Part shown: positions 3,389 through 62,739 of the stretch, one piece after another
Numbering within the stretch: the first letter of the stretch is position 1
Layout of the letters: every line of letters begins with the position of its first letter
Origin: Eledone cirrhosa
Lineage: Eukaryota
Assembly: GCA_964016885.1 (NCBI GenBank)
Contig: OZ024749.1
Location: forward strand, 37,820,001-37,884,000
DNA: 64,000 nucleotides
Direction of reading: 5' to 3'
Program-made: the position numbers and the translations under genes
Notes under the pieces: model-generated
Seen by the model: the letters and a program-made list of their open reading frames with translations, nothing else
What the model was told of the DNA's origin: nothing
Databases searched by the model: none

Positions 3389-3457
3389 TCGCAAGTTTCG
3401 AAACGAAAATATTGGTTTGTGTTAAGAATGAAACCAATATATACATATATTTATATA

Positions 3458-3624
3458 TAGGAACCACCAGTAAGACCCCGACAGCTGAGCTCAAGCCGTT
3501 TCGACCCGGCTTGAGCTCAGCTGTCGGGGTCTTACTGGTTCCTATTACCCACTCTACTACCTCAAGTATTGAGTACTTTGGTGCGTTATGGTCCACCTGG
3601 TTCCTTACCACACTTCCTTCGTTA
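3458..3624. mobile_element. Family-A foldback element
   Basis: Palindrome taggaacc..gaccccgacagctgagctcaagccg/cggcttgagctcagctgtcggggtc..gttccta plus tail, inside (TA)n. Confidence 0.75.
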
Positions 3625-3647
3625 TATTTATATATATATATATATAA

Positions 3648-3790
3648 TGAAAAATTGAACGGGAACAAAACAGAGAGGCAGTACAAACAAATGTTTATTA
3701 ATTTCACGCTCTTGGGAGTGGGGTGGTGGTGGGGAACGACGTTTCGGGCATAAGCCCTTCTTCAGGTGAAAAGTGTGTGGGAAGAGAGTT
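3648..3790 (-). mobile_element. Penelope-like 3'-end fragment with minimal hammerhead core
   Basis: Minus strand reads UUUCAC CUGAAGA A GGGC-UUAU-GCCC GAAAC GUC ..30 nt.. GUGAAA, then AAUAAA. This is the minimal core typical of PLE pLTRs. Confidence 0.6.
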
Positions 3791-3803
3791 ATATATATAT
3801 ATA

Positions 3804-3838
<35 letters not shown>

Positions 3839-3843
<5 letters not shown>

Positions 3844-4261
3844 GAGTTAAACAAGATTCAATGAGTAAATCAAAGAATCAGTTTTACAGTAGATTGGAAG
3901 CACTCTACAAGGAAAAATATTTTCCAGAGTTATTAATATTAAGATACAAATATTAATAAAATAGATGTTCTTGTGATCAATTAAATTTTAATATACATAT
4001 TTCAAGGTACTTGAATCAAGTTCAACAGTACGTCCTCATCAGATAAAATAAAATGATACATGACATACCCTGAGATGTTAGATGGTTAAGATGTAATGAA
4101 GGTAGTGATTAAATCTTAACCATCTACCATGTCAGGGTATGTCATGTATCATTTTAATTTATCTGATGAGGACGTACTGTTGAACTTGATTCAAGTACTT
4201 CTGAAATATTTATAATAAAATATAATTGATCACAAGAATATCCATTTTGTTAATATTTGAA

Positions 4262-4268
<7 letters not shown>
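3839..4268. mobile_element. Family-C foldback element
   Basis: Tail about 3839-3930, inverted arms about 3933-4091 and 4112-4268, inside (TA)n. Confidence 0.7.
4157..4220 (+). ncRNA. Type-I hammerhead ribozyme motif (family C)
   Basis: Reads UUUAU CUGAUGA (4163-69) GGACGUAC..UUGAA/UUCAA..GUAC GAAA (4203-06) UAUUUAUA^ AUAAA. A mirror core lies on the minus strand at about 3986-4048. Confidence 0.65.
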
Positions 4269-4329
<61 letters not shown>

Positions 4330-4476
4330 TATATGTATATATATATATATATGTATGTATCTATGTATGTATGTACATATATTTATATTATATATATATA
4401 CATATGTAACTACATATACATATATAGATATAATATATTTATATATATATATGTATATATATAGAGAATATATATG

Positions 4477-4509
<33 letters not shown>

Positions 4510-4585
4510 GTATAGTAAATTAAAATAAAATAAAAGGCAGGATGCTAGTTGAGGTGTTTGTCGTGGTGTTTGTGGTGGTTGTGGG

Positions 4586-4620
<35 letters not shown>

Positions 4621-4970
4621 GTCGTGGTGGTGGTGATGTTGTACTAGTCTGTGGTGGTGGTGGTGATGGTGGTGGTGGTGATGGTGATTGTTTATGGTTG
4701 TCATGATGGTGCTGGTATTCATGGTGGTAGTATTGGTAGTGGTGTTGATGTTGGCGTTGGTAGTGCTACTACGTCTTGATAAAGATGTGTTTGCTACAAG
4801 AAGAAGAAAGGACGGTGTGGTGGAGGTGGAGGTGGAGGTGGTTGTGGAGGTGTTGGTGGTGGCGGAGGTTGTGATGGTGATGGTTGTTGTGGTGCTGGTG
4901 TAGATGCTGTAGGTGGTGGAGATTTCTTCTGCTTGCTGCTGAGCCAATTAAATGTAAATGTAGTATAACA

Positions 4971-5095
<125 letters not shown>

Positions 5096-5431
5096 GGGGT
5101 GTGTGTGTGTGCGTATGTGTGTGTGTGTGTGTGGATGCATGAATATGTGTATGTGTATGTATGGATGTGTGTATATGTGTGTGTGTATATGGATGTATGG
5201 ATGTGTGTTATATGTGTGTGTAACCCAACACATCTGCTCAGTTGTAATAATTGAGTGTATACCCGTGGTGGATAGCCGCAGATATAAGATACTGTTTGAT
5301 AAAGTCTTAGTATTTATTTGTTTACTTACAACAGAGACAAGCAGACGAGATTAAAACAACAATATTTATCGTTTCTCTTGTTAACTATCATTGGATAACT
5401 TCATACTCTTGTCGAAGTTATTGTTTCCCAT

Positions 5432-5485
<54 letters not shown>

Positions 5486-5554
5486 CAGTAGCAGCAGTAA
5501 CAGTAGCAGTAGTAGTAGTAGTAGCAGACCAGCAGCAGTAGTAGTAGTAGCAGC

Positions 5555-5625
<71 letters not shown>

Positions 5626-5974
5626 CAGTAGTAGTAGCAGCACCAGCAGCAGCAGCAGTAATAGTAGTAGTAGTAATAGTAGTAGTAGTAGTAGGAAGTA
5701 GTGTTGATATTCCCAGCGATGTTTGCAATATCGTACATCCGCCATATTTAATTGACAAGATGGCGCCCCTACAAATCCACTAAGAGTCACTTATATAAAT
5801 TTATTTTAGAAGTTTGGGCTGTTGTGGAAGTTATTTTACCAGAATTATACCTGATCGAAGAGGCCTTTTATAACCAAAGACAGTGCAACAGTAAATATCA
5901 CCTATATCAGTTTTGGTATTTCAGTCAGTCACAATGAACCACGTATAACATTATTCAATGTATCTCTTTTAAAA

Positions 5975-6545: not shown

Positions 6546-6547
<2 letters not shown>

Positions 6548-6765
6548 CGAAGGAAATGTGGTAAGGAACCAGGTGGACCATAACGCACCAAAGTACTCAA
6601 TACTTCGAGTAGTAGAGTGGGTAATAGGAACGAGTAGGACCCCGACGGCTGAGCTCAAGCCGTTTCAACGGCTAATTCTGGACTAAAATTTTTTAGTCCA
6701 GAATTTTGTAGTCCAGAATTAGCCGTCGAAACGGCTTGAGCTCAGCCGTCGGGGTCCTACTCGTT

Positions 6766-6768
<3 letters not shown>
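6546..6768. mobile_element. Family-A foldback element
   Basis: Tail plus inverted arms folded within hammerhead stem II. The spacer duplicates agtccagaatt. Confidence 0.75.
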
Positions 6769-6826
<58 letters not shown>

Positions 6827-7126
6827 GATATATATGTATATATATATATATATGCATATATATATAAGTTCAGTATATTTAATACCACCTCTCTCTCGCT
6901 CTCTCTCTCTCTCTGTTACCACACACATACACGTTGCCACATGTATTGTACCCACATTGAGAAAGAGAGTGATATAGAGAGATAGTGAGAGTGTGTGTGT
7001 ACGTGCGTGAGAGAGAGAGAGGAATGGGGGAGGAGTATATATTCCGTATTGGCATTCCATTCTAATTAATCCCGTCTAATGTTTTACATCAAACAGTCAT
7101 AATACAGGACAACTTCTGTGCATGTG

Positions 7127-7163
<37 letters not shown>

Positions 7164-21679: not shown

Positions 21680-24600
21680 TGTTGTTGTTGCTGTTGGTGG
21701 TGGTGGTGGTGTTACTGTAGGTGGTGTTGGTGGTGGTGGTGGTGTTGCTGTAGGTGGTGGTGTTGCTGTTGGTGGTTGTGGTGGTGGTGTTGCTGTAGGT
21801 GGTGGTGTTGGTGGTGGTGGTGGTGTTGCTGTTGGTGGTGGTGTTGGTGGTGGTTGTGGTGGTGTTGGTGGTGGTGGTGGTGGTGTTGCTGTAGGTGGTG
21901 TTGGTGGTGGTGGTGGTGGTGTTGCTGTAGGTGGTGGTGTTGGTGTGGTGGTGGTGGTGGTGTTGGTGTTGCTGTAGGTGGTGGTGTTGCTGTAGGTGGT
22001 GTTGGTGGTGGTGTTGCTGTAGGTGGTGGTGTTGGTGGTGGTGTTGGTGGTGGTGGTGTTGCTGTAGGTGGTGGGGTTGGTGGTGTAGGTGGTGGTGTTG
22101 CTGTAGGTGGTGGTGTTGGTGGTGGTTGTGGTGGTGTTGCTGTAGGTGGTGGTGTTGGTGGTGGTGGTGGTGGTGTTGGTGGTGGTGTTGGTGGTGGTGG
22201 TGTTGGTGGTGGTTGTGGTGGTGTTGCTGTAGGTGGTGGTGTTGGTGGTGGTGGTGGTGTTGTTGTTGGTGGTGGTGGTGGTGTTGGTGTTGCTGTAGGT
22301 GGTGGTGTTGCTGTAGGTGGTGTTGGTGGTGGTGTTGCTGTAGGTGGTGTTGGTGGTGGTGGTGGTGGTGTTGCTGTAGGTGGTGGTGTTGGTGGTGGTG
22401 GTGGTGTTGCTGTTGGTGGTGGTGGTGGTGTTGGTGTTGCTGTAGGTGGTGTTGGTGGTGGTGTTGCTGTAGGTGGTGGTGTTGGTGGTGGTGTTGGTGG
22501 TGGTGGTGTTGCTGTAGGTGGTGTTGGTGGTGGTGTTGCTGTAGGTGGTGGTGTTGGTGGTGGTGTTGGTGGTGGTGGTGTTGCTGTAGGTGGTGGTGTT
22601 GGTGGTGTAGGTGGTGGTGTTGCTGTAGGTGGTGGTGTTGCTGTTGGTGGTGGTGGTGGTGTTGGTGTTGCTGTAGGTGGTGTTGGTGGTGGTGTTGCTG
22701 TAGGTGGTGGTGGTGTTGGTGGTGGTGTTGGTGGTGGTGTTGGTGGTGTTGCTGTAGGTGGTGGTGTTGGTGGTGGTGGTGGTGTTGCTGTAGGTGGTGG
22801 TGTTGGTGGTGGTGTTGGTGGTGGTGTTGGTGGTGGTGTTGGTGGTGTTGGTGGTGGTGTTGGTGTTGCTGTAGGTGGTGGTGTTGGTGGTGGTTGTGGT
22901 GGTGTTGCTGTAGGTGGTGGTGTTGGTGGTGGTGGTGGTGGTGTTGGTGGTGTTGCTGTAGGTGGTGGTGTTGGTGGTGGTGGTGGTGTTGCTATAGGTG
23001 GTGGTGTTGGTGGTGGTGTTGGTGGTGGTGTTGGTGGTGTTGGTGGTGGTGGTGGTGTTGCTGTAGGTGGTGGTGTTGGTGGTGGTTGTGGTGGTGTTGC
23101 TGTAGGTGGTGGTGTTGGTGGTGGTTGTGGTGGTGTTGCTGTAGGTGGTGGTGTTGGTGGTGGTGGTGGTGGTGGTGTTGCTGTAGGTGGTGGTGTTGGT
23201 GGTGGTTTGGTGGTGGTGGTGTTGGTGGTGTTGGTGGTGGTGGTGGTGTTGCTGTAGGTGGTGGTGTTGGTGGTGGTGGTGGTGTTGCTGTAGGTGGTGG
23301 TGTTGGTGGTGGTGGTGGTGGTGTTGCTGTAGGTGGTGGTGTTGGTGGTGGTGTTGGTGGTGGTGGTGTTGGTGGTGTTGGTGGTGGTGGTGGTGTTGCT
23401 GTAGGTGGTGTTGGTGGTGGTTGTGGTGGTGTTGCTGTAGGTGGTGGTGTTGGTGGTGGTTGTGGTGTTGCTGTAGGTGGTGGTGTTGGTGGTGGTGGTG
23501 GTGTTGCTGTTGGTGGTGGTGTTGGTGGTGGTTGTGGTGGTGTTGGTGGTGGTGGTGGTGGTGTTGCTGTAGGTGGTGGTTGTGGTGGTGTTGGTGGTGG
23601 TGTTGCTGTAGGTGGTGGTGTTGGTGGTGGTTGTGGTGGTGTTGGTGGTGGTGGTGGTGGTGTTGCTGTAGGTGGTGTTAGTGGTGGTGGTTGTGGTGGT
23701 GTTGCTGTAGGTGGTGGTGTTGGTGGTGGTGGTGTTGTTGGTGGTGGTGTTGGTGGTGGTGGTGGTGTTGCTGTTGGTGGTGGTGTTGGTGGTGGTTGTG
23801 GTGGTGTTGCTGTTGGTGGTGGTGGTGGTGGTTGTGGTGGTGTTGCTGTAGGTGGTGTTGGTGGTGGTGGTTGTGGTGGTGTTGCTGTAGGTGGTGTTGT
23901 TGTTGGTGGTGGTGGTGTTGTTGGTGGTGGTGTTGGTGGTGGTGGTGGTGGTGTTGCTGTAGGTGGTGGTGTTGGTGGTGGTGGTGGTGTTGCTGTTGGT
24001 GGTGGTGTTGGTGGTGGTTGTGGTGGTGTTGGTGGTGGTTGTGGTGGTGTTGGTGGTGGTGGTGGTGGTGTTGCTTTTGGTGGTGGTGTTGGTGGTGGTT
24101 GTGGTGGTGTTGGTGGTGGTGGTGGTGGTTGTGGTGGTGTTGGTGGTGGTGGTGTTGGTGGTGGTTGTGGTGGTGTTGGTGGTGTTGCTGTAGGTGGTGG
24201 TGTTGCTGTAGGTGGTGTTGGTGGTGGTGGTGGTGGTGGTGTTGCTGTAGGTGGTGGTGTTGGTGGTGGTGTTGCTGTAGGTGGTGGTGGTGGTGGTGGT
24301 GTTGCTGTAGGTGGTGGTGTTGGTGGTGGTGGTGGTGTTGCTGTTGGTGGTGGTGGTGGTGTTGGTGTTGCTGTAGGTGGTGTTGGTGGTGGTGTTGCTG
24401 TAGGTGGTGGTGTTGGTGGTGGTGTTGGTGGTGGTGGTGTTGCTGTAGGTGGTGTTGGTGGTGGTGTTGCTGTAGGTGGTGGTGTTGGTGGTGGTGTTGG
24501 TGGTGGTGGTGTTGCTGTAGGTGGTGGTGTTGGTGGTGTAGGTGGTGGTGTTGCTGTAGGTGGTGGTGTTGCTGTTGGTGGTGGTGGTGGTGTTGGTGTT

Positions 24601-27418
24601 GCTGTAGGTGGTGTTGGTGGTGGTGTTGCTGTAGGTGGTGGTGGTGTTGGTGGTGGTGTTGGTGGTGGTGTTGGTGGTGTTGCTGTAGGTGGTGGTGTTG
24701 GTGGTGGTGGTGGTGTTGCTGTAGGTGGTGGTGTTGGTGGTGGTGTTGGTGGTGGTGTTGGTGGTGGTGTTGGTGGTGTTGGTGGTGGTGGTGGTGTTGC
24801 TGTAGGTGGTGGTGGTGTTGGTGGTGGTGTTGGTGGTGGTGTTGGTGGTGTTGCTGTAGGTGGTGGTGTTGGTGGTGGTGGTGGTGTTGCTGTAGGTGGT
24901 GGTGTTGGTGGTGGTGGTGGTGGTGGTGTTGGTGTTGCTGTAGGTGGTGGTGTTGCTGTAGGTGGTGTTGGTGGTGGTGGTGGTGGTGGTGTTGCTGTAG
25001 GTGGTGGTGTTGGTGGTGGTGTTGCTGTAGGTGGTGGTGGTGGTGGTGGTGTTGCTGTAGGTGGTGGTGTTGGTGGTGGTGGTGGTGTTGCTGTTGGTGG
25101 TGGTGGTGGTGTTGCTATAGGTGGTGGTGTTGGTGGTGGTGTTGGTGGTGGTGTTGGTGGTGGTGTTGGTGGTGTTGGTGGTGGTGGTGGTGTTGCTGTA
25201 GGTGGTGGTGTTGGTGGTGGTTGTGGTGGTGTTGCTGTAGGTGGTGGTGTTGGTGGTGGTTGTGGTGGTGTTGCTGTAGGTGGTGGTGTTGGTGGTGGTG
25301 GTGGTGGTGGTGTTGCTGTAGGTGGTGGTGTTGGTGGTGGTTTGGTGGTGGTGGTGTTGGTGGTGTTGGTGGTGGTGGTGGTGTTGCTGTAGGTGGTGGT
25401 GTTGGTGGTGGTGGTGGTGTTGCTGTAGGTGGTGGTGTTGGTGGTGGTGGTGGTGGTGTTGCTGTAGGTGGTGGTGTTGGTGGTGGTGTTGGTGGTGGTG
25501 GTGTTGGTGGTGTTGGTGGTGGTGGTGGTGTTGCTGTAGGTGGTGTTGGTGGTGGTTGTGGTGGTGTTGCTGTAGGTGGTGGTGTTGGTGGTGGTTGTGG
25601 TGTTGCTGTAGGTGGTGGTGTTGGTGGTGGTGGTGGTGTTGCTGTTGGTGGTGGTGTTGGTGGTGGTTGTGGTGGTGTTGGTGGTGGTGGTGGTGGTGTT
25701 GCTGTAGGTGGTGGTTGTGGTGGTGTTGGTGGTGGTGTTGCTGTAGGTGGTGGTGTTGGTGGTGGTTGTGGTGGTGTTGGTGGTGGTGGTGGTGGTGTTG
25801 CTGTAGGTGGTGTTAGTGGTGGTGGTTGTGGTGGTGTTGCTGTAGGTGGTGGTGTTGGTGGTGGTGGTGTTGTTGGTGGTGGTGTTGGTGGTGGTGGTGG
25901 TGTTGCTGTTGGTGGTGGTGTTGGTGGTGGTTGTGGTGGTGTTGCTGTTGGTGGTGGTGGTGGTGGTTGTGGTGGTGTTGCTGTAGGTGGTGTTGGTGGT
26001 GGTGGTTGTGGTGGTGTTGCTGTAGGTGGTGTTGTTGTTGGTGGTGGTGGTGTTGTTGGTGGTGGTGTTGGTGGTGGTGGTGGTGGTGTTGCTGTAGGTG
26101 GTGGTGTTGGTGGTGGTGGTGGTGTTGCTGTTGGTGGTGGTGTTGGTGGTGGTTGTGGTGGTGTTGGTGGTGGTTGTGGTGGTGTTGGTGGTGGTGGTGG
26201 TGGTGTTGCTGTTGGTGGTGGTGTTGGTGGTGGTTGTGGTGGTGTTGGTGGTGGTGGTGGTGGTTGTGGTGGTGTTGGTGGTGGTGGTGTTGGTGGTGGT
26301 TGTGGTGGTGTTGGTGGTGTTGCTGTAGGTGGTGGTGTTGGTGGTGTTTGTGGTGGTGTTGCTGTAGGTGGTGGTGTTGGTGGTGGTTGTGGTGGTGTTG
26401 CTGTAGGTGGTTGTGTTGGTGGTGGTGGTGGTGTTGCTGTAGGTGGTGGTGTTGGTGGTGGTGGTGGTGTTGCTGTAGGTGGTGTTGGTGTTGGTGGTGG
26501 TGGTGGTGTTGCTGTAGGTGGTGTTGGTGGTGGTTGTGGTGGTGGTGTTGCTGTAGGTGGTGTTGGTGGTGGTTGTGGTGGTGTTGCTGTAGGTAGTGGT
26601 GTAGGTGGTGGTTGTGGTGGTGTTGCTGTAGGTGGTGGTGTAGGTGGTGGTTGTGGTGGTGTTGCTGTAGGTGGTGGTGTAGGTGGTGGTTGTGGTGGTG
26701 TTGCTGTAGGTGGTGGTGTTGGTGGTGGTTGTGGTGGTGGTGTTGCTGTAGGTGGTGGTGTTGGTGGTGGTGGTGGTGTTGCTGTAGGTGGTGGTGTAGG
26801 TGGTGGTTGTGGTGGTGTTGCTGTAGGTGGTGGTGTAGGTGGTGGTTGTGGTGGTGTTGCTGTAGGTGGTGGTGTTGGTGGTGGTGGTGGTGTTGCTGTA
26901 GGTGGTGGTGTTGGTGGTGGTTGTGGTGGTGTTGGTGGTGGTGTTGGTGGTGGTGTTGGTGGTGGTGGTGTTGCTGTAGGTGGTGGTGTTGGTAGTGGTG
27001 GTGGTGTTGCTGTAGGTGGTGGTGTTGGTGGTGGTTGTGGTGGTGTTGCTGTAGGTGGTGGTGGTGGTGGTGGTGGTGTTGCTGTAGGTGGTGGTGTTGG
27101 TGGTGGTGGTGGTGTTGGTGGTGGTTGTGGTGGTGTTGGTGGTGGTGTTGGTGGTGGTGTTGGTGGTGGTGGTGGTGGTGGTGGTGTTGGTGGTGGTGGT
27201 GGTGTTGCTGTTGGTGGTGGTGTTGTTGGTGGTGGTGGTGGTGTTACTGTAGGTGGTGTTGGTGGTGGTGGTGGTGGTGGTGTTACTGTAGGTGGTGTTG
27301 GTGGTGGTGGTGGTGGTGGTGTTGGTGGTGGTGGTGGTGTTACTGTAGGTGGTGTTGGTGGTGGTGGTGGTGGTGGTGTTACTGTAGGTGGTGTTGGTGG
27401 TGGTGGTGGTGGTGGTGT
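21680..27418. repeat. 5.7-kb (GGT)n-derived satellite punctuated by GTTGCTGTA
   Basis: Direct inspection. An internal block repeats at an offset of 2135 bp. Confidence 0.95.
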
Positions 27419-27528
27419 TTATGGATTTGACTTTGGTTGTTTTTGATACATCTTTCGCGTATTTATCATTTATTTTATTTTCCCAAAGTATTATTATTAT
27501 CATTATCATTGTTTTTATTGTTCTTGTT

Positions 27529-27529
27529 T

Positions 27530-27573
<44 letters not shown>

Positions 27574-27597
27574 CGCAGCAGAAGCAGCAGCAGTAGC

Positions 27598-27638
<41 letters not shown>

Positions 27639-27859
27639 CAGTAGTAGTAGTAGTAGTAGTAGCAGCAGCAGCAGCAGTAGTAGTAATAGTAGTAGTAGCA
27701 GCAGCAGTAGCAGTAGTAGTAGCAGCAGCAGCAGCAGCAGTAGTAGCAGCAGTGGTGGAGGTGTTATCATCATGATCACCATTAATCTGTTTTCAAATGT
27801 GATTAACTTTTGCCTTTCTATCTCATCCCTCAGTTGCAGCTACACTTGCACACACACAC

Positions 27860-27891
<32 letters not shown>

Positions 27892-27946
27892 ACACACACA
27901 CACATACATACACACACACACACACACACATGCACAGACACACACA

Positions 27947-27985
<39 letters not shown>

Positions 27986-28082
27986 ACACACACACATACA
28001 CACACACACATACATACACACACACACATACACACACACACATACATACACACACACACACACACATGCACAGACACACACA

Positions 28083-31328: not shown

Positions 31329-31330
<2 letters not shown>

Positions 31331-31410
31331 CGAAGGAGGTGTGGTAAGGAACCAGATGGACCATAACGTCGAAACGGCTTGAGTTCTGCCGTCGGGGTCA
31401 TACATTTTCC

Positions 31411-31412
<2 letters not shown>
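31329..31412. mobile_element. Family-A element, internally deleted
   Basis: Tail end (aacgaagg..ggaccataacg) fused directly to the inverted arm (tcgaaacggcttgag..ggggtc..ttccta). Confidence 0.65.
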
Positions 31413-31453
<41 letters not shown>

Positions 31454-42136: not shown

Positions 42137-42867
42137 CGTGGTGCGTGTGTGTACATACATATTTGTATATGTACATATTTAGGCGCACGCACACAAACAT
42201 ACCCTCATACACTACATTAGACTGCAATAAACATATTTCACATCCAGTTGGCGCCGTTCCAATATATACATTATTCTCGCACCAGGTGGAGCTGTTGTAC
42301 GGACAAGGTCGGCCATGTTGGATGATTACCTATCTAGATTAAACCACTTTTTGCTGTCATATTTCTTTAGTGGTTTTGGTGTTGTTGTTGTTGTTGTTGT
42401 TACCGTCGTCGTTGTTGTAGTTATTATTGTTGCTTGTGAGGGCGGGTGGAATGGCAGAATCGGTAGAGGGTCGGACGCCAAGGCTTTGCAGCAAAGAGTT
42501 ACGTCCCTTTATGGTCTGAGTTCAAGTGGTGGTGTTTCTGATGCTAGTGATGGTGTTGCTGATGCTAGTTGTGGTGGTGGTGGTGGTGGTGGTGGTGGTG
42601 GTGATGTGGTGGTGGTGTTGATGGTGGTAGTAGTAGTAGTAGTGGTGATGGTGGTGCTGGTGGTGGTGGTGTGGTGGTGGTGTTGATGGTGATGGTGGTG
42701 GTAGTAGTAGTGGTGGTTGTGGTTGTGGTTGTGGTTGTGGTTGTTATGGTGGTGTTGGTACTTGTGTTATTACTGCTGCTGGTGGCTGTGGTTGTTGTGG
42801 TAGTTGTGGTGGTGTTGGTACGTGTATTATTGCTGTTGGTGGTAGTTGTGGTACGCTTGTTATTTTG

Positions 42868-43365
42868 ATTGGCAGTGGTCGTTAGAGCGTCGGACACCAT
42901 GCTTTGACGCATACCAGTCACGCACTGGAGTCGATTTAATCGACATTCCCTTCCCCCAAAATTGCTGGCCTTGTGCCTTATATAAGAAACCATTATTATT
43001 ATCGTAGGACGGTGGTTTGGCAGTATCGGTAGAATGTCGGACGCCATGCTTTGCAGCATAGAGTTATGGCTCTTTACTTTGTGAGTTCAAATATCGCCGA
43101 GGTTAGGTCATCCTTTCATGGTCGATAAAATAAAGTACCAGTAATGCACTGGGGTAATTGCTGGCCTTGTGCCAACAGTAGAAACATTATTATTATTATT
43201 ATTATTATTATGCTTTGACGCATAGAGTTACGGCCCTTGCTATTCTCAGTTCAAATCCAGCCGAGGTTAATTTTTGCCTTTCATCCTTACGGGCTCGATA
43301 AAATAAAGTACCAGTAATACACTGGTATAATTGCTGGCCTTGTGCCAAAAGTATAACCAATTATT
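42868..43365 (+). mobile_element. Tandem SINE cluster (3 units)
   Basis: Same family, with an isolated head also at 42438-42525. Confidence 0.85.
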
Positions 43366-43431
43366 AACAGTGTTACTGTTGTTGCAGTCACCGTTGTTAT
43401 TGTTTAGCTCCAGATAAAAGTGTTAGAGATA

Positions 43432-43620
43432 TAATTGTTTCTACTTTAGGCACAAGGCCAGCAATTACCCAGTGCATTACTGGTACTTTATTTTATCGAC
43501 CCCGTAAGGATGAAAGGCAAAGTTAACCTCGGCGGGTTTTGAACTCAGAATGACAAGGGCCGTAACTCTATGCGTCAAAGCATGGCGTCCGACCCTCTAC
43601 CTATACTGCCAATCCACCGA
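43432..43620 (-). mobile_element. Full-length SINE, tail-to-tail with the preceding cluster
   Basis: Same family on the minus strand. Confidence 0.85.
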
Positions 43621-43892: not shown

Positions 43893-43991
<99 letters not shown>

Positions 43992-44082
43992 CGAAAGAAA
44001 TGTGGTAAGGAACCAGGTGGACCATAACGCACCAAAGTACTCAATACTTAGGGTAGTAGAGTGGGTAATAGGAACAAGTAAG

Positions 44083-44176
44083 ACCCCGACGGCTGAGCTC
44101 AAGCCGTTTCGACGGCTAATTCTGGACTGAATGAAAATTTATTCTGGTATTTAAATAGCCGAGCTTATCAAGGGGT
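44083..44176 (-). ncRNA. Mirror copy of the family-A U3:A8 hammerhead on the minus strand
   Basis: Exact inverted repeat of 44249-44342. Confidence 0.75.
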
Positions 44177-44248
44177 AATTCCATAATCAAGGGGTAACTT
44201 GTGATGTGACCAATCCTGGTGATTATCTCTTTGACCATATATGGAATT

Positions 44249-44342
44249 ACCCCTTGATAAGCTCGGCTATTTAAATACCAGAATAAATTTTCATTCAGTC
44301 CAGAATTAGCCGTCGAAACGGCTTGAGCTCAGCCGTCGGGGT
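44249..44342 (+). ncRNA. Type-I hammerhead ribozyme, U3:A8 core variant (family A)
   Basis: Reads ACCCC (stem I 5') UUGAUAA (44254-60) G-CU-CGGCUA..UAGCCG-U-C (stem II) GAAA (44315-18) CGGCU-ugagcuc-AGCCG (stem III) UC^ (predicted cleavage after 44337) GGGGU (stem I 3'). Stem I extends as GGAA/UUCC across an internal loop. Confidence 0.75.
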
Positions 44343-44352
44343 CTTACTTGTT

Positions 44353-44401
<49 letters not shown>

Positions 44402-44961
44402 TCCCATATATATATATATGTATATATATTTATATATATATATATATAAATATATATATGTGAGTACATATATATATATATATGAGGTGTGCTGGTAATC
44501 TAGTACGCCAAGGATTCATCCCATCGAATACTGAAGTTTTCACTGAAACTTCGAAATTAAAATCACCTTTATTTCTTCAATATATATATATATATGTATT
44601 TATGTATATATGTATGTATATATATATATATACACAAATATATATATGTTATTGTTAGTAGTTGTGGTGGTAGAGCTGGCGATGGTTGTGGTGTAGTGGT
44701 CGGTATTTAGTGATGTGGTTGGTGAGTGAACAGGTGGGGGGAGAATAGTATTCTGTGTTGTGTGTGAGACGATGTCGCTGAAATTAGCTTTTGTGTTGTA
44801 TTGTATTGTATTGTTATAATATATGTGAGTCTGCGGCTAGTTAACATGTATTATCTTCTCTTGGTTTCACTGTAACTTGGCGTTACGCCATGCTGGGCTC
44901 ATTAGCTAACAACACTGCTACATACACTACTACCACTACATATATTACTACTACTACAACA

Positions 44962-45037
<76 letters not shown>

Positions 45038-45406
45038 TTGTTATCGTTATTATTAATACTACCTCATCTACACATATCTGGCATATCTGCCAATTTGCTA
45101 CTATAACATGTTATAAGCACTCTGTGGTGCAGTATTCGGTTAAATGGTAAAACCCCGCTCCTCCCTAATTGTTAGTTTATATATAGATACGTTTGTTGTA
45201 AGATCGATCTCGGAAGATGTTATATACAACCCTGGGCTGCATTATCAGAGAAAAATAAAGAAAAAAATGCATCGCATAATATAATATTAGAGACAGGCAT
45301 ATAAACAGACATAGACATACAGACACAAAAACACGCTCTTGTATAACTTAAACACACACAGACAGACACATACACACACACATACACACATATATATATA
45401 TATATG

Positions 45407-45447
<41 letters not shown>

Positions 45448-45449
<2 letters not shown>

Positions 45450-45686
45450 CAACGAGTAGGACCCCGACGGCTGAGTTCAAGCCGTTTCGACGGCTAATTC
45501 TGGACTAAAAGACTTATTCAACTGCTACACCTGCTGAAATAGATCTTTTAGTCCAGAATTAGCCGTCGAAACGGGTTGAGCTCAGCCGTCGGGGTCCTAC
45601 TCGTTCCTATTACCCACTCTACTACCCTAAGTATTGAGTACTTTGGTGCGTTATGGTCCATCTGGTTCCGTACCACATTTCCTTCG

Positions 45687-45689
<3 letters not shown>
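45448..45689. mobile_element. Family-A foldback element with captured spacer
   Basis: Inverted arms plus tail. Spacer 45514-45547 is identical to 46416-46449. Confidence 0.75.
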
Positions 45690-45738
<49 letters not shown>

Positions 45739-45743
<5 letters not shown>

Positions 45744-46124
45744 AACAAAAGATGGTTAAAAGAGTTCCATGTATTTTATTATGCGCATTTAAAAAACAAA
45801 TATCATCATGCAATAATATTTGTGTTTTCATCAGATAAAACATGAAGACATGATATGAAGGTTAAAAAATATGTTAATTTAAAACTGAACTATCCACAAT
45901 TGTTTTTTAACCTTCATATCATGTCTTCATGTTTTATCTGATGAAAACACAAATATTATTGCATGATGATATTTGTTTTTGAAATGCGCATAATAAAATA
46001 CATGGAACTCTTTTAACCATCTTTTGTTCTTATATATTATGTATACTCCAGTCCTACAAACTGTAGAGTGCTTATTATCCGATATCTGCATTGCTTTATT
46101 GTACTACAATAAAACTCACCTCCT

Positions 46125-46127
<3 letters not shown>
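45739..46127. mobile_element. Family-B foldback element
   Basis: Near-perfect inverted arms of about 130 bp (45739-45868 and 45903-46033) plus a tail of about 90 bp, inside (TA)n. Confidence 0.75.
45928..46004 (+). ncRNA. Type-I hammerhead ribozyme with palindromic stem III (family B)
   Basis: Reads CAUG-UUUUAU CUGAUGA (45938-44), long AU-rich stem II AAACACAAAUAUUAU/AUGAUAUUUGUUUUU, GAAA (45981-84) UGCGCA UA^ AUAAAA-UA-CAUG. Confidence 0.75.
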
Positions 46128-46186
<59 letters not shown>

Positions 46187-47377
46187 GCGTGTGAAGGTAC
46201 ATGGCTTAGTGGTTAGAGCATTGGACTGACTTGAAACACCTTAAACATTAAACTTCTAAACCACACCAATATCACAGATATACGGTTGTAAACTGAACAC
46301 GTTAACCATTAAACCACTAAACCACTAAACCACTAAACCAAACTAATATCACAAAATATACGAACATGATTAATCTACCACAATAAAACGAAATAGTTCC
46401 AAAGTAGAACGAGCATTATTCAACTGCTACACCTGCTGAAATAGATCTTCTCATTGTTATTCTACTATAACAACAACAACAACAACAACAACCATAACAA
46501 TAACAGTAACTACAATCACCACCATTACAATAACATCAACAACAACAACAACCACCACAACCACAAAAGCAGCCATAACAATGACAGCAACGATAAAAGC
46601 AAGGACAACAACGCCAGCAACAATAACATAAACGATAACAAGAGCCAAAGTCACAACCACAACGAGAAGCCTTCTTACTGCAACACATCCTCCTACCTTT
46701 CTTCTCCTGTCCTTCCCTCACAATCTTACCCTCATCTAACCAGGAGTTCATTACAGTGAGGCCCCCTGCTGTGAAATCAGTTAATACCTGTAACAAACAA
46801 AGCAACTATGGTGGCAACTCAGTGCGCCAAATAATTTCATTTCTATTTCATAAATGGCCGACATTTTAGGACAGAAAGAATATATTAAATATTAGATATA
46901 ATTTATTGCACACTGCTTGGCTAAATACCTTTTCATTTTCTATTTTATCTTTCTCGTACCTTACCTAACTCTTTATAGTTGTTTGTATATAACTCTCACC
47001 TGGATAGGGATGGGCTGTTTCAGGTTTAACTGCCAAAAACTGTGTATGTAACAACGGCGCCCCTACAACACTATCATGAGTTAAAGGAGCATGACAGAGA
47101 TATAACTCGTATATCTTTAGCACACCGTGTTGCCTGTTTCTATCTCTTTGTCTATCTACATATGCACCTATACATCTATTCATTTATCGATCTATAGACC
47201 TATATAATAGAAAAAGACTAACATTTCTGAACGTATCGGATGCTAGTCCTTCGTCGGAACGAGTAAAGATAGGAGAACACAAACATGTGTTTATATTCAG
47301 GATGGCGAGTAAGTAGTCCGCTATGTGAAGTGGTGTGCCGAGGAGCTGGCGGAGCAACGGGCTCTAACGTGTTGGTA

Positions 47378-47726: not shown

Positions 47727-48052
<326 letters not shown>

Positions 48053-62067: not shown

Positions 62068-62250
62068 AACGAAGGAAATGTGGTAAGGAACCAGGTGGGC
62101 CATAACGCACCAAAGTACTCAATACTTAGGGTAGTAGAGTGGGTAATAGGAACGAGTAGGACCCGACGGCTGAGCTCAAGCCGTTTCGTTGGACCAGAAT
62201 TAGCTGTCGAAACGGCTTGAGCTCAGCCGTCGGGGTCCTACTCGTTCCTA
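62068..62250. mobile_element. Family-A foldback element
   Basis: Tail plus inverted arms inside (TA)n. Confidence 0.75.
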
Positions 62251-62739
62251 TATACATATATATATATATATATATATGCATTTCAAAAGAGTTTTGTATT
62301 GTAAAAACCAAATGAAAAGGGGCTGTTTCATTTGGTTTCGTATGAAAAGTATTAAACACTAGAAAAGCAGAAGTAAATACAAACAAAAACAAAACAAAAA
62401 AAGAGAAAGTGCTCAACTTGCTTAACTTCAGCAGCTAATAATATAAACTAAAGGACATTATGAAAGACAATGTCTTCTATCGACACGCCTCACTATTAAA
62501 TATTCATGGTCGCTTCACTGATGCATTGCTAACTGTAGTCCCCAGAGCATCATAAATGGGTCACCATAAGGAGTTTTGTCCCTTTAGTTGTGCTCTTTCG
62601 GCTCAAGCCCTTCCTTTGTTTGTCCGGTCTGACTGTAGAACAATTAAAAGACATTTTGGTTTAAAATATTGGAGGCGGAACACTTCTTACATTGGTGTTC
62701 TATGGAAATGGTCAAAGGTTACGATAGATGGCACACGTT

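Follow-up and report, generated by a model that had tools for sequence, protein, structure and literature searches.

The hammerhead ribozymes of Penelope-like retroelements (PLEs) have been described in a handful of studies, and both PLE hammerheads with a U3-A8 pair and inverted pLTR copies are already published. According to the accessible part of Cervera and De la Pena (2014; PMC4209133), PLE hammerheads include a variant with U3-A8, for which about 1,300 hits are given in Schistosoma, carry a palindromic helix III, show low activity and occur as motif pairs on opposite strands; their cleavage in vitro is slow, and dimerisation via stem III has been proposed (PMC4209133 and a review, as far as excerpted). 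Other hammerheads with a natural U3-A8 covariant, described as rare examples, have activity in vitro (Perreault et al., 2011; PMC3088659, in the sections at hand), and our literature search found no C3U/G8A mutant data. As outlined in the available text of Craig et al. (2021; PMC8557442), PLEs have pLTRs, an inverted 5′-truncated copy, a tail of 30-40 bp at one end, microsatellite or (TA)n targets and a pLTR hammerhead. The most detailed mechanistic work concerns PAc, a PLE of the green anole (Frangieh et al., 2024; PMC11167929): both target strands are cut and extended, reverse transcription starts at two sites flanking the tail and unprocessed RNA is the template, while the hammerhead cleaves only with protein, hammerhead mutants have no effect on insertion and no RNA ends are seen at the cleavage site. 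Regarding cephalopods, a search on hammerhead ribozymes in octopus returned nothing relevant beyond Craig et al. (2021), and an octopus repeat paper makes no mention of hammerheads in its accessible portion.

Here we report on a hammerhead motif in a window of 64,000 nucleotides of the genome of Eledone cirrhosa, the window being the whole stretch of DNA that was analysed. A sequence-only reading of this stretch had proposed a foldback element with a complete type-I hammerhead on the plus strand and its mirror on the minus strand, and all the parts that it listed were indeed found (Table 1): three helices surround the core, with the open end in stem I, as in type-I hammerheads. The insertion that carries them, at 43990-44357, is a young, 5′-truncated and 5′-inverted PLE copy in (TA)n. 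We consider it probable that the motif is a PLE pLTR hammerhead with a family-wide U3-A8 core, which likely cleaves the RNA of the element only weakly, helped by dimerisation or by protein; the two copies in the window are predicted to be trapped in a hairpin.

Table 1. Features of the PLE insertion and of related insertions, in positions of the 64,000-nt window.
Feature	Position	Strand	Remarks
(TA)n target tract	43912-43989		Adjoins element 3′ end; from sequence
Whole insertion	43990-44357	-	5′-truncated, 5′-inverted PLE copy, family A, subfamily A1; element sense is minus
78-nt tail	43990-44067	-	Forward copy only; in full elements between hammerhead and first ATG of ORF
Arm 1, forward copy of pLTR end	44068-44185	-	Begins 8 nt upstream of stem I
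Type-I hammerhead motif, forward copy	44083-44176	-	Exact mirror of the plus-strand motif
9-nt junction patch	44186-44194		Repeats stem I/core letters; from sequence
Arm 2, inverted copy of pLTR end	44195-44357	+	Begins 53 nt upstream of stem I; without tail
45 nt unique to inverted copy	44195-44239	+	Absent from forward copy; from arm comparison
Type-I hammerhead motif, inverted copy	44249-44342	+	Stem I ACCCC 44249-44253 with GGGGU 44338-44342; distal GGAA/UUCC
Core U3-U4-G5-A6-N7-A8-A9	44254-44260	+	UUGAUAA; U at N7 in A1 and B, G at N7 in A2
Stem II and loop II	44261-44314	+	G10.1 (44261) with C11.1 (44314), then 44264-44272 with 44304-44312; CGGCUA 44264-44269/UAGCCG 44307-44312, 37 nt between; 31-nt variable loop
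Competing 6-bp hairpin	44308-44323	+	G12-A14 in loop; predicted -7.5 kcal/mol; in minimum-energy fold of window copy
GAAA	44315-44318	+	
Stem III	44319-44335	+	CGGCU 44319-44323/AGCCG 44331-44335; palindromic GAGCUC loop; predicted homodimer -27.3 vs -5.4 kcal/mol per hairpin
GUC triplet	44335-44337	+	Predicted cleavage after 44337 (sequence; hammerhead numbering)
(TA)n tract, inverted side	44355-44397		From sequence
Seven further insertions, all in (TA)n, all without 5′ core	684-850, 3450-3623, 6546-6770, 31329-31413, 45446-45688, 47777-47917, 62068-62251		One belongs to subfamily B

The motif is well beyond chance expectation. A strict type-I descriptor (stems I, II and III of 5, 6 and 5 bp, Watson-Crick pairs only) matched two sites in the window, the two motif copies, and none in 100 dinucleotide shuffles, and a relaxed version matched three sites against a shuffled mean of 0.02; the descriptor missed the family C hammerhead, which has a short stem II and was read by eye. 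Rfam gave no match at gathering score across the window and, at E<=10 over 43900-46200, no hammerhead family among 106 matches, which comprised only miRNA-type hairpin and low-complexity noise. Standard searches thus miss this motif, as had been anticipated from the letters of its core.

Regarding the anatomy of the insertion, the arms at 44068-44185 and 44240-44357 are 118 nt long, 100% complementary and 54 nt apart. The homology of the inverted arm to the element begins at 44195 and not at 44240, and the 78-nt tail is present on one side only, making the insertion asymmetric. Since the forward arm holds the tail and the inverted arm 45 nt of its own, neither is a simple fold-back copy of the other, and the 9-nt patch between them is likely a template-switch scar. 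The window copy matches the pLTR of a long locus (L129) at 100% over motif and tail, hence its young age. Altogether, eight insertions of the family lie in the window, all in (TA)n; each carries the 78-nt end at one side, and most also have an inverted arm, whose length varies. Of note, the 34-nt spacer of a neighbouring short foldback (45514-45547) is an exact copy of 46416-46449, 900 bp away, suggesting that local DNA was captured at the junction. The window also holds several copies, on both strands, of a SINE-like repeat (42445-43620), which we take to resemble cephalopod SINEs, and a strongly skewed G/T-rich tract (22001-28000; GC skew 0.92, AT skew -0.90), probably a simple-repeat array.

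The family is very large. A first look at the genome (3.0 Gb, 1796 contigs) gave 1475 candidates; among the 40 that were scored, many show 100% identity across the motif and frequently lie in inverted pairs separated by 0.1-4 kb. Twenty random 10-kb stretches on two contigs contained three insertions, which would correspond to about 45,000 copies (9,000-131,000) if these contigs are typical; all three, like seven of the eight in the window, are devoid of the core, and arm lengths differ from copy to copy. In longer copies, the sequence extends into about 1.2 kb of 3′ UTR and into an ORF that has reverse transcriptase (RT) and C-terminal GIY-YIG motifs. Among eight long loci fetched, four (L127, L129, L131 and L132) show, in order, motif and tail, an open frame, the UTR, a second motif and tail, (TA)n and an inverted 5′ copy. 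In L127 the first motif (3510-3603) and tail (3619-3696) are accompanied by an open frame at 3588-5954, followed by the 3′ UTR, a motif at 7063-7156, tail, (TA)n and inverted 5′ copy. Full elements are hence organized as pLTR-ORF-pLTR, with a type-I hammerhead in each pLTR, just upstream of the ORF.

The L127 frame comprises 721 codons from the first ATG, itself located about 185 nt past the motif, and encodes DKT, the RT aspartates, YRDDG, a four-Cys linker, VIY...YIG, R and H. In an alignment of 42 rows, among them one sister family and 40 homologues taken from the 120 that were listed, the RT aspartates are present in 42/42 rows and the four Cys of the CNC-x-C-x-C linker in 41/42, their spacing (C-x-C-x5-C-x5-C) being somewhat unlike the published CX2-5CxxC pattern. 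Searches with this ORF scored 8000 sequences, of which 2009 were homologues, many carrying PF26215 and the best carrying the GIY-YIG domain PF01541; among the homologues listed, the best named one is from a bivalve. Pfam searches with ORF pieces and whole ORFs gave no real match, and a PDB sequence search with the ORF matched no solved structure. The two Cys between GIY and YIG that belong to the CCHH motif of PLE endonucleases are absent as a pair: a single Cys is found there, 33 of the 42 rows having Ala, and a conserved CxxC lies further towards the C-terminus instead. As the whole homologue set shares this absence, it marks a lineage. The single ORF with RT and C-terminal GIY-YIG, the tandem pLTRs, the inverted 5′ copy, the one-end tail and the pLTR hammerhead together show, from sequence features, an endonuclease-bearing (EN+) PLE with a linker, in which the motif would be the pLTR hammerhead. 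YRDDG and the length of about 700 amino acids would fit the Nematis clade.

Most of the unselected copies end inside the hammerhead. Sequence that had not been chosen for family A (642 kb) contains 28 forward copies, of which 11, of B type or more diverged, were set aside because the B loop II does not align to the A1 reference. Among the remaining 17 A-type copies, 16 lack the core and 12 break between +42 and +70 (counted from stem I); none of the 17 has its start at the position of cleavage (+90), and cleavage has thus left no genomic trace in this set. Inverted arms behave alike, 14 of 15 breaking in the same interval though they started 78 nt closer. The break rate over +42 to +70 is about 14 times that over +71 to +150, a ratio to be read knowing that the interval was chosen after seeing the data, that very short copies are under-detected and that arms of one insertion are not independent. 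Run X1 likewise shows a drop of about 60-fold in summed contig depth, which stands at about 4-5 million in stem III and at about 73,000 in the core, contig depth not being copy number and B copies dropping out by divergence; run X5 (organism B) gave two contigs, neither reaching the core. Break-points inside the fold suggest a stall of reverse transcription by the hammerhead, and the simplest reading would be stalling or template switching at stem II/loop II, or joining via repeated AGCCGUC words. A literature search found no report on PLE truncation or template switching at a hammerhead. One could go further and see the hammerhead as an RT stop signal producing tens of thousands of substrate-half copies (3′ strand of stem II, GAAA, stem III, GUC, 3′ strand of stem I), with full elements supplying the U3-A8 enzyme half to cut in trans the host RNAs that bear half-copies, a genome-wide two-piece ribozyme; we regard this as a very long shot.

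Predicted energetics do not favour the active fold of a monomer. The minimum-energy fold of the window copy, in which the competing hairpin hides G12-A14, is 3.7 kcal/mol more stable than the hammerhead fold; the latter is the less stable of the two in 24/24 copies, by 1.3-10.9 kcal/mol. The folding z-score of the window motif is only -1.5 to -1.8, so that thermodynamic support for the fold alone is modest, and in native context stems I, II and III reach predicted probabilities of only 0.49, 0.35 and 0.27. Stem III is predicted to favour a homodimer, and the GAGCUC palindrome of loop III is present in all three subfamilies.

Sequence conservation is more telling. We assembled 152 complete copies from 206 loci, de-duplicated by locus overlap and partly fetched with core-containing queries, which fall into subfamilies A1 (90), A2 (29) and B (32), plus one other; B is older and decayed, only 12 of its 32 copies keeping all core letters. 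The 3-8 Watson-Crick pair is present as U-A in 147 copies, and no copy of family A or B carries the canonical C3-G8 (0/152); one truncated copy has U3-G8. In 37 copies from 30 loci, retrieved by means of an upstream query that stops short of the core, U3 is found in 37/37 and A8 in 36/37. UUGAUAA, or more exactly UUGA(U/G)AA, is therefore the state of the family and not private to the window copy, as had been surmised. In column majorities, U4, G5, A6, A9, G12, A13, A14, A15.1, U16.1 and H17, together with G10.1-C11.1, are fixed across the three subfamilies. Between A1 and B, none of 14 core positions differs against 20 of 33 loop II columns (Fisher p 6.5e-5), and the six of 18 stem II positions that differ are three whole pairs (G-C to A-U, U-A to A-U, U.U to G-C; p 0.0045); stem I is invariant between subfamilies, and both loop I and loop II differ. 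A2 departs from A1 only at N7, at the unpaired base after G10.1, at a stem III pair (G-C to G.U) and at loop bases. Around the motif divergence is larger: four B copies compared with A1 have 6-50% identity per 50 nt in the upstream UTR and 56-80% in the motif, and the A and B ORF ends are about 75% identical in protein.

In 24 chosen copies, eight per subfamily, 92.4% of cells are paired versus 27-49% in slid controls, with 15 two-sided cells. These two-sided changes concern only two pairs, a pair count that 491 of 500 shuffles also reach; B has C.A in place of the outer stem III pair (8/8 rows), and A has U.U at one stem II pair (16/16 rows). Since so few pairs change on both sides, the covariation evidence amounts to one phylogenetic contrast, A against B, and not to many. 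With a core that stays unchanged while stem II changes in pairs and loop II and UTR diverge, the motif nevertheless appears real, and selective keeping of core and helices is supported. As for the proposal that U3-A8 is compensatory and selected, the selective keeping holds, and the pair does correspond to a rare natural covariant for which in vitro activity has been published from other hammerheads (Perreault et al., 2011; PMC3088659, as excerpted); a change from C3-G8 to U3-A8 was not caught within the family. A second PLE family, 37% identical in protein, has a canonical CUGAAGA hammerhead in the corresponding location, which makes U3-A8 particular to the A/B lineage, and we infer that the change ran from C3-G8 to U3-A8.

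Selection could also act on something other than catalysis. It is conceivable, and in our estimation rather unlikely, that the motif descends from a hammerhead and is now maintained because it binds protein or serves in priming for the retrotransposon. The green-anole PLE, with its hammerhead mutants without effect on insertion and its lack of RNA ends at the cleavage site, gives weight to this idea, as do the absence of any unselected copy starting at the cut site and an active fold that is not the minimum-energy one. Moreover, the tail adjoining the hammerhead is conserved too (52-86% between A and B in the two B copies carrying it), so that the 3′ half could be kept for priming and not for catalysis. 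What speaks for a catalyst is the pattern within the core, where the sole position varying between subfamilies is N7, the one left free by catalysis, the other 14 being fixed; this fixed core includes a 5′ block bracketed by a diverged loop II and an unalignable UTR, and U3-A8 retains a 3-8 pair needed only by the catalytic conformation. Cleavage by the family hammerhead is thus likely on these sequence grounds, and real, weak cleavage in native tandem transcripts seems to us moderately probable.

The window insertion itself would behave differently. In transcripts of either strand the antisense arm precedes the sense arm, and in equilibrium folding of growing prefixes the 5′ strand of stem I and the core are captured by the antisense arm with a probability of 0.95-1.00 as soon as the core is transcribed, all three hammerhead stems having a probability of 0.000 on either strand. 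As the antisense arm is made first and traps the core, co-transcriptional self-cleavage at 43990-44357 is unlikely; of the two fates that the sequence-only reading had foreseen for a read-through transcript, the dsRNA hairpin (a predicted 118-bp duplex) stands and self-cleavage does not. The two motif copies are thus predicted to trap each other. An element built with an active ribozyme on both strands, whose read-through RNA self-cleaves in either direction, is accordingly highly improbable: the two perfect motif copies in opposite orientation, and the inverted pairs common genome-wide, do invite it, but beside the capture of the sense arm on either strand, arm lengths vary, 7/8 window and 3/3 random-stretch insertions lack the core, and inverted copies are a described by-product of PLE insertion. 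What had been taken for the design of a foldback element is the usual inverted 5′ copy. A non-LTR retrozyme, i.e., a small tandem-repeat element with a type-I hammerhead and a circular RNA, is hardly credible either. Such elements are reported, in the part of the literature at hand, to derive from pLTRs, and a type-I hammerhead with palindromic helix III in an animal genome would suit them; the examined loci contain neither head-to-tail arrays of 150-400 bp units nor non-coding tandem repeats each with a hammerhead, and the copies are 3′ ends of a coding element. Finally, a MITE or other DNA transposon with terminal inverted repeats, a TA target duplication and a hammerhead by chance, as short, high-copy sequences with inverted arms and TA flanks might evoke, is refuted by the linked RT/GIY-YIG ORF into which the sequence runs, the arms being asymmetric and variable in length instead of fixed terminal inverted repeats and the descriptor being unmatched in shuffles, and retains a negligible probability.

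A PLE insertion by two cDNAs would account for these features. By analogy with the green-anole work, the element protein would nick both strands of an AT-rich target, and two cDNAs would be primed on uncleaved RNA, one at the tail end (+187 from stem I) and one at the tail start (+109), the positions where forward copies and inverted arms respectively end. Both cDNAs would stop early and be joined tip to tip, giving an asymmetric foldback; the arms are deduced to have been templated separately because each holds sequence absent from the other. Such a model agrees with the behaviour of the green-anole PLE, in which both target strands are cut and extended, reverse transcription has two start sites and the template is unprocessed RNA. 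In tandem pLTR-ORF-pLTR transcripts, the hammerhead would cut after C17 with assistance either from the element protein or from two palindromic stem III regions that pair with each other, help being needed because the competing hairpin keeps the monomer partly misfolded. In loop II/stem II, the fold would tend to stop or switch the reverse transcriptase, and we propose that most genomic copies keep only the 3′ half for this reason. Read-through RNA of the window insertion would form the duplex without self-cleavage.

This genome contains other hammerheads. A second, unrelated foldback lies in (TA)n at 45735-46125, with 135-nt arms that are 99% complementary, followed by an apparent tail. Its plus-strand arm carries a canonical CUGAUGA type-I hammerhead (core at 45938) with a palindromic UGCGCA at helix III and a long stem II, and in the mirrored arm GAAA is changed to UAAA. 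Of its 54 listed genome matches, 45 are 100% identical over 135 nt, often as inverted pairs; its anatomy is like that of a PLE end, and no PLE ORF adjoins it in four loci. Besides, in the second PLE family, which shares 37% of its amino acids with family A, the canonical CUGAAGA hammerhead is a minimal one with a palindromic CAAUUG (L200, 4905-4945; L202, minus strand near 2750), located, as read by eye, about 190 nt past the stop codon. Further CUGAUGA type-I candidates were seen in L170 (minus strand, 545), L183 (plus strand, 109) and L201 (minus strand, 645 and 1114), with palindromic helix III (CCAUGG, CUAG) and, in two of them, a long loop II.

Very large, young, fixed for U3-A8 and missed by both Rfam and CUGANGA descriptors, the family is a good test case. 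With canonical C3-G8 PLE hammerheads in the same genome, it can be asked what hammerheads do for PLEs, a point that the literature calls unclear. If confirmed in vitro, the break-point cluster would give the hammerhead a role in shaping insertions, and the many perfect foldbacks are a possible source of dsRNA.

Compared with known systems, and within what the accessible portions of these papers report, the motif is close to the U3-A8 minimal hammerheads of Cercyon from Schistosoma mansoni, with which it shares type I, location in a pLTR, U3-A8, a 5-bp stem I, a long stem II, G10.1-C11.1, a helix III palindrome and motif pairs on opposite strands (100-700 bp apart in Cercyon). Unlike these minimal motifs, which have little or no helix III, it has a full helix III of 4-5 bp with a GAGCUC loop and a loop II of 31-33 nt; it has unpaired bases after G10.1 and not the single extra base between A9 and G10.1, and it belongs to a linker-bearing PLE lineage with a C-terminal GIY-YIG. 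The element is like the Neptune/Nematis-type EN+ PLEs (PMC8557442, in its available sections) in its C-terminal GIY-YIG, Zn-finger-like RT-EN linker, tandem and inverted pLTRs, microsatellite targets and hammerhead near the 3′ end, its 78-nt tail being longer than the 30-40 bp described there. As in PAc, a Poseidon PLE of Anolis carolinensis, the hammerhead lies at the pLTR-ORF junction, the tail is two-ended, targets are AT-rich and an uncut hammerhead is retained; in contrast to PAc, which has C3-G8, an ORF starting inside the hammerhead and tails of 30-40 bp, the first ATG is here about 185 nt past the motif and the tail has 78 nt. The compensatory 3-8 pair is the same as in the covariants of Perreault et al. 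(2011, as excerpted), and it is here the fixed state of a very large and young retroelement family. The supplements of Cervera and De la Pena (2014) and Craig et al. (2021) may already list the family of the window; it differs from the systems described above by the full helix III, the 31-33 nt loop II, the 78-nt tail and the family-wide fixation of U3-A8.
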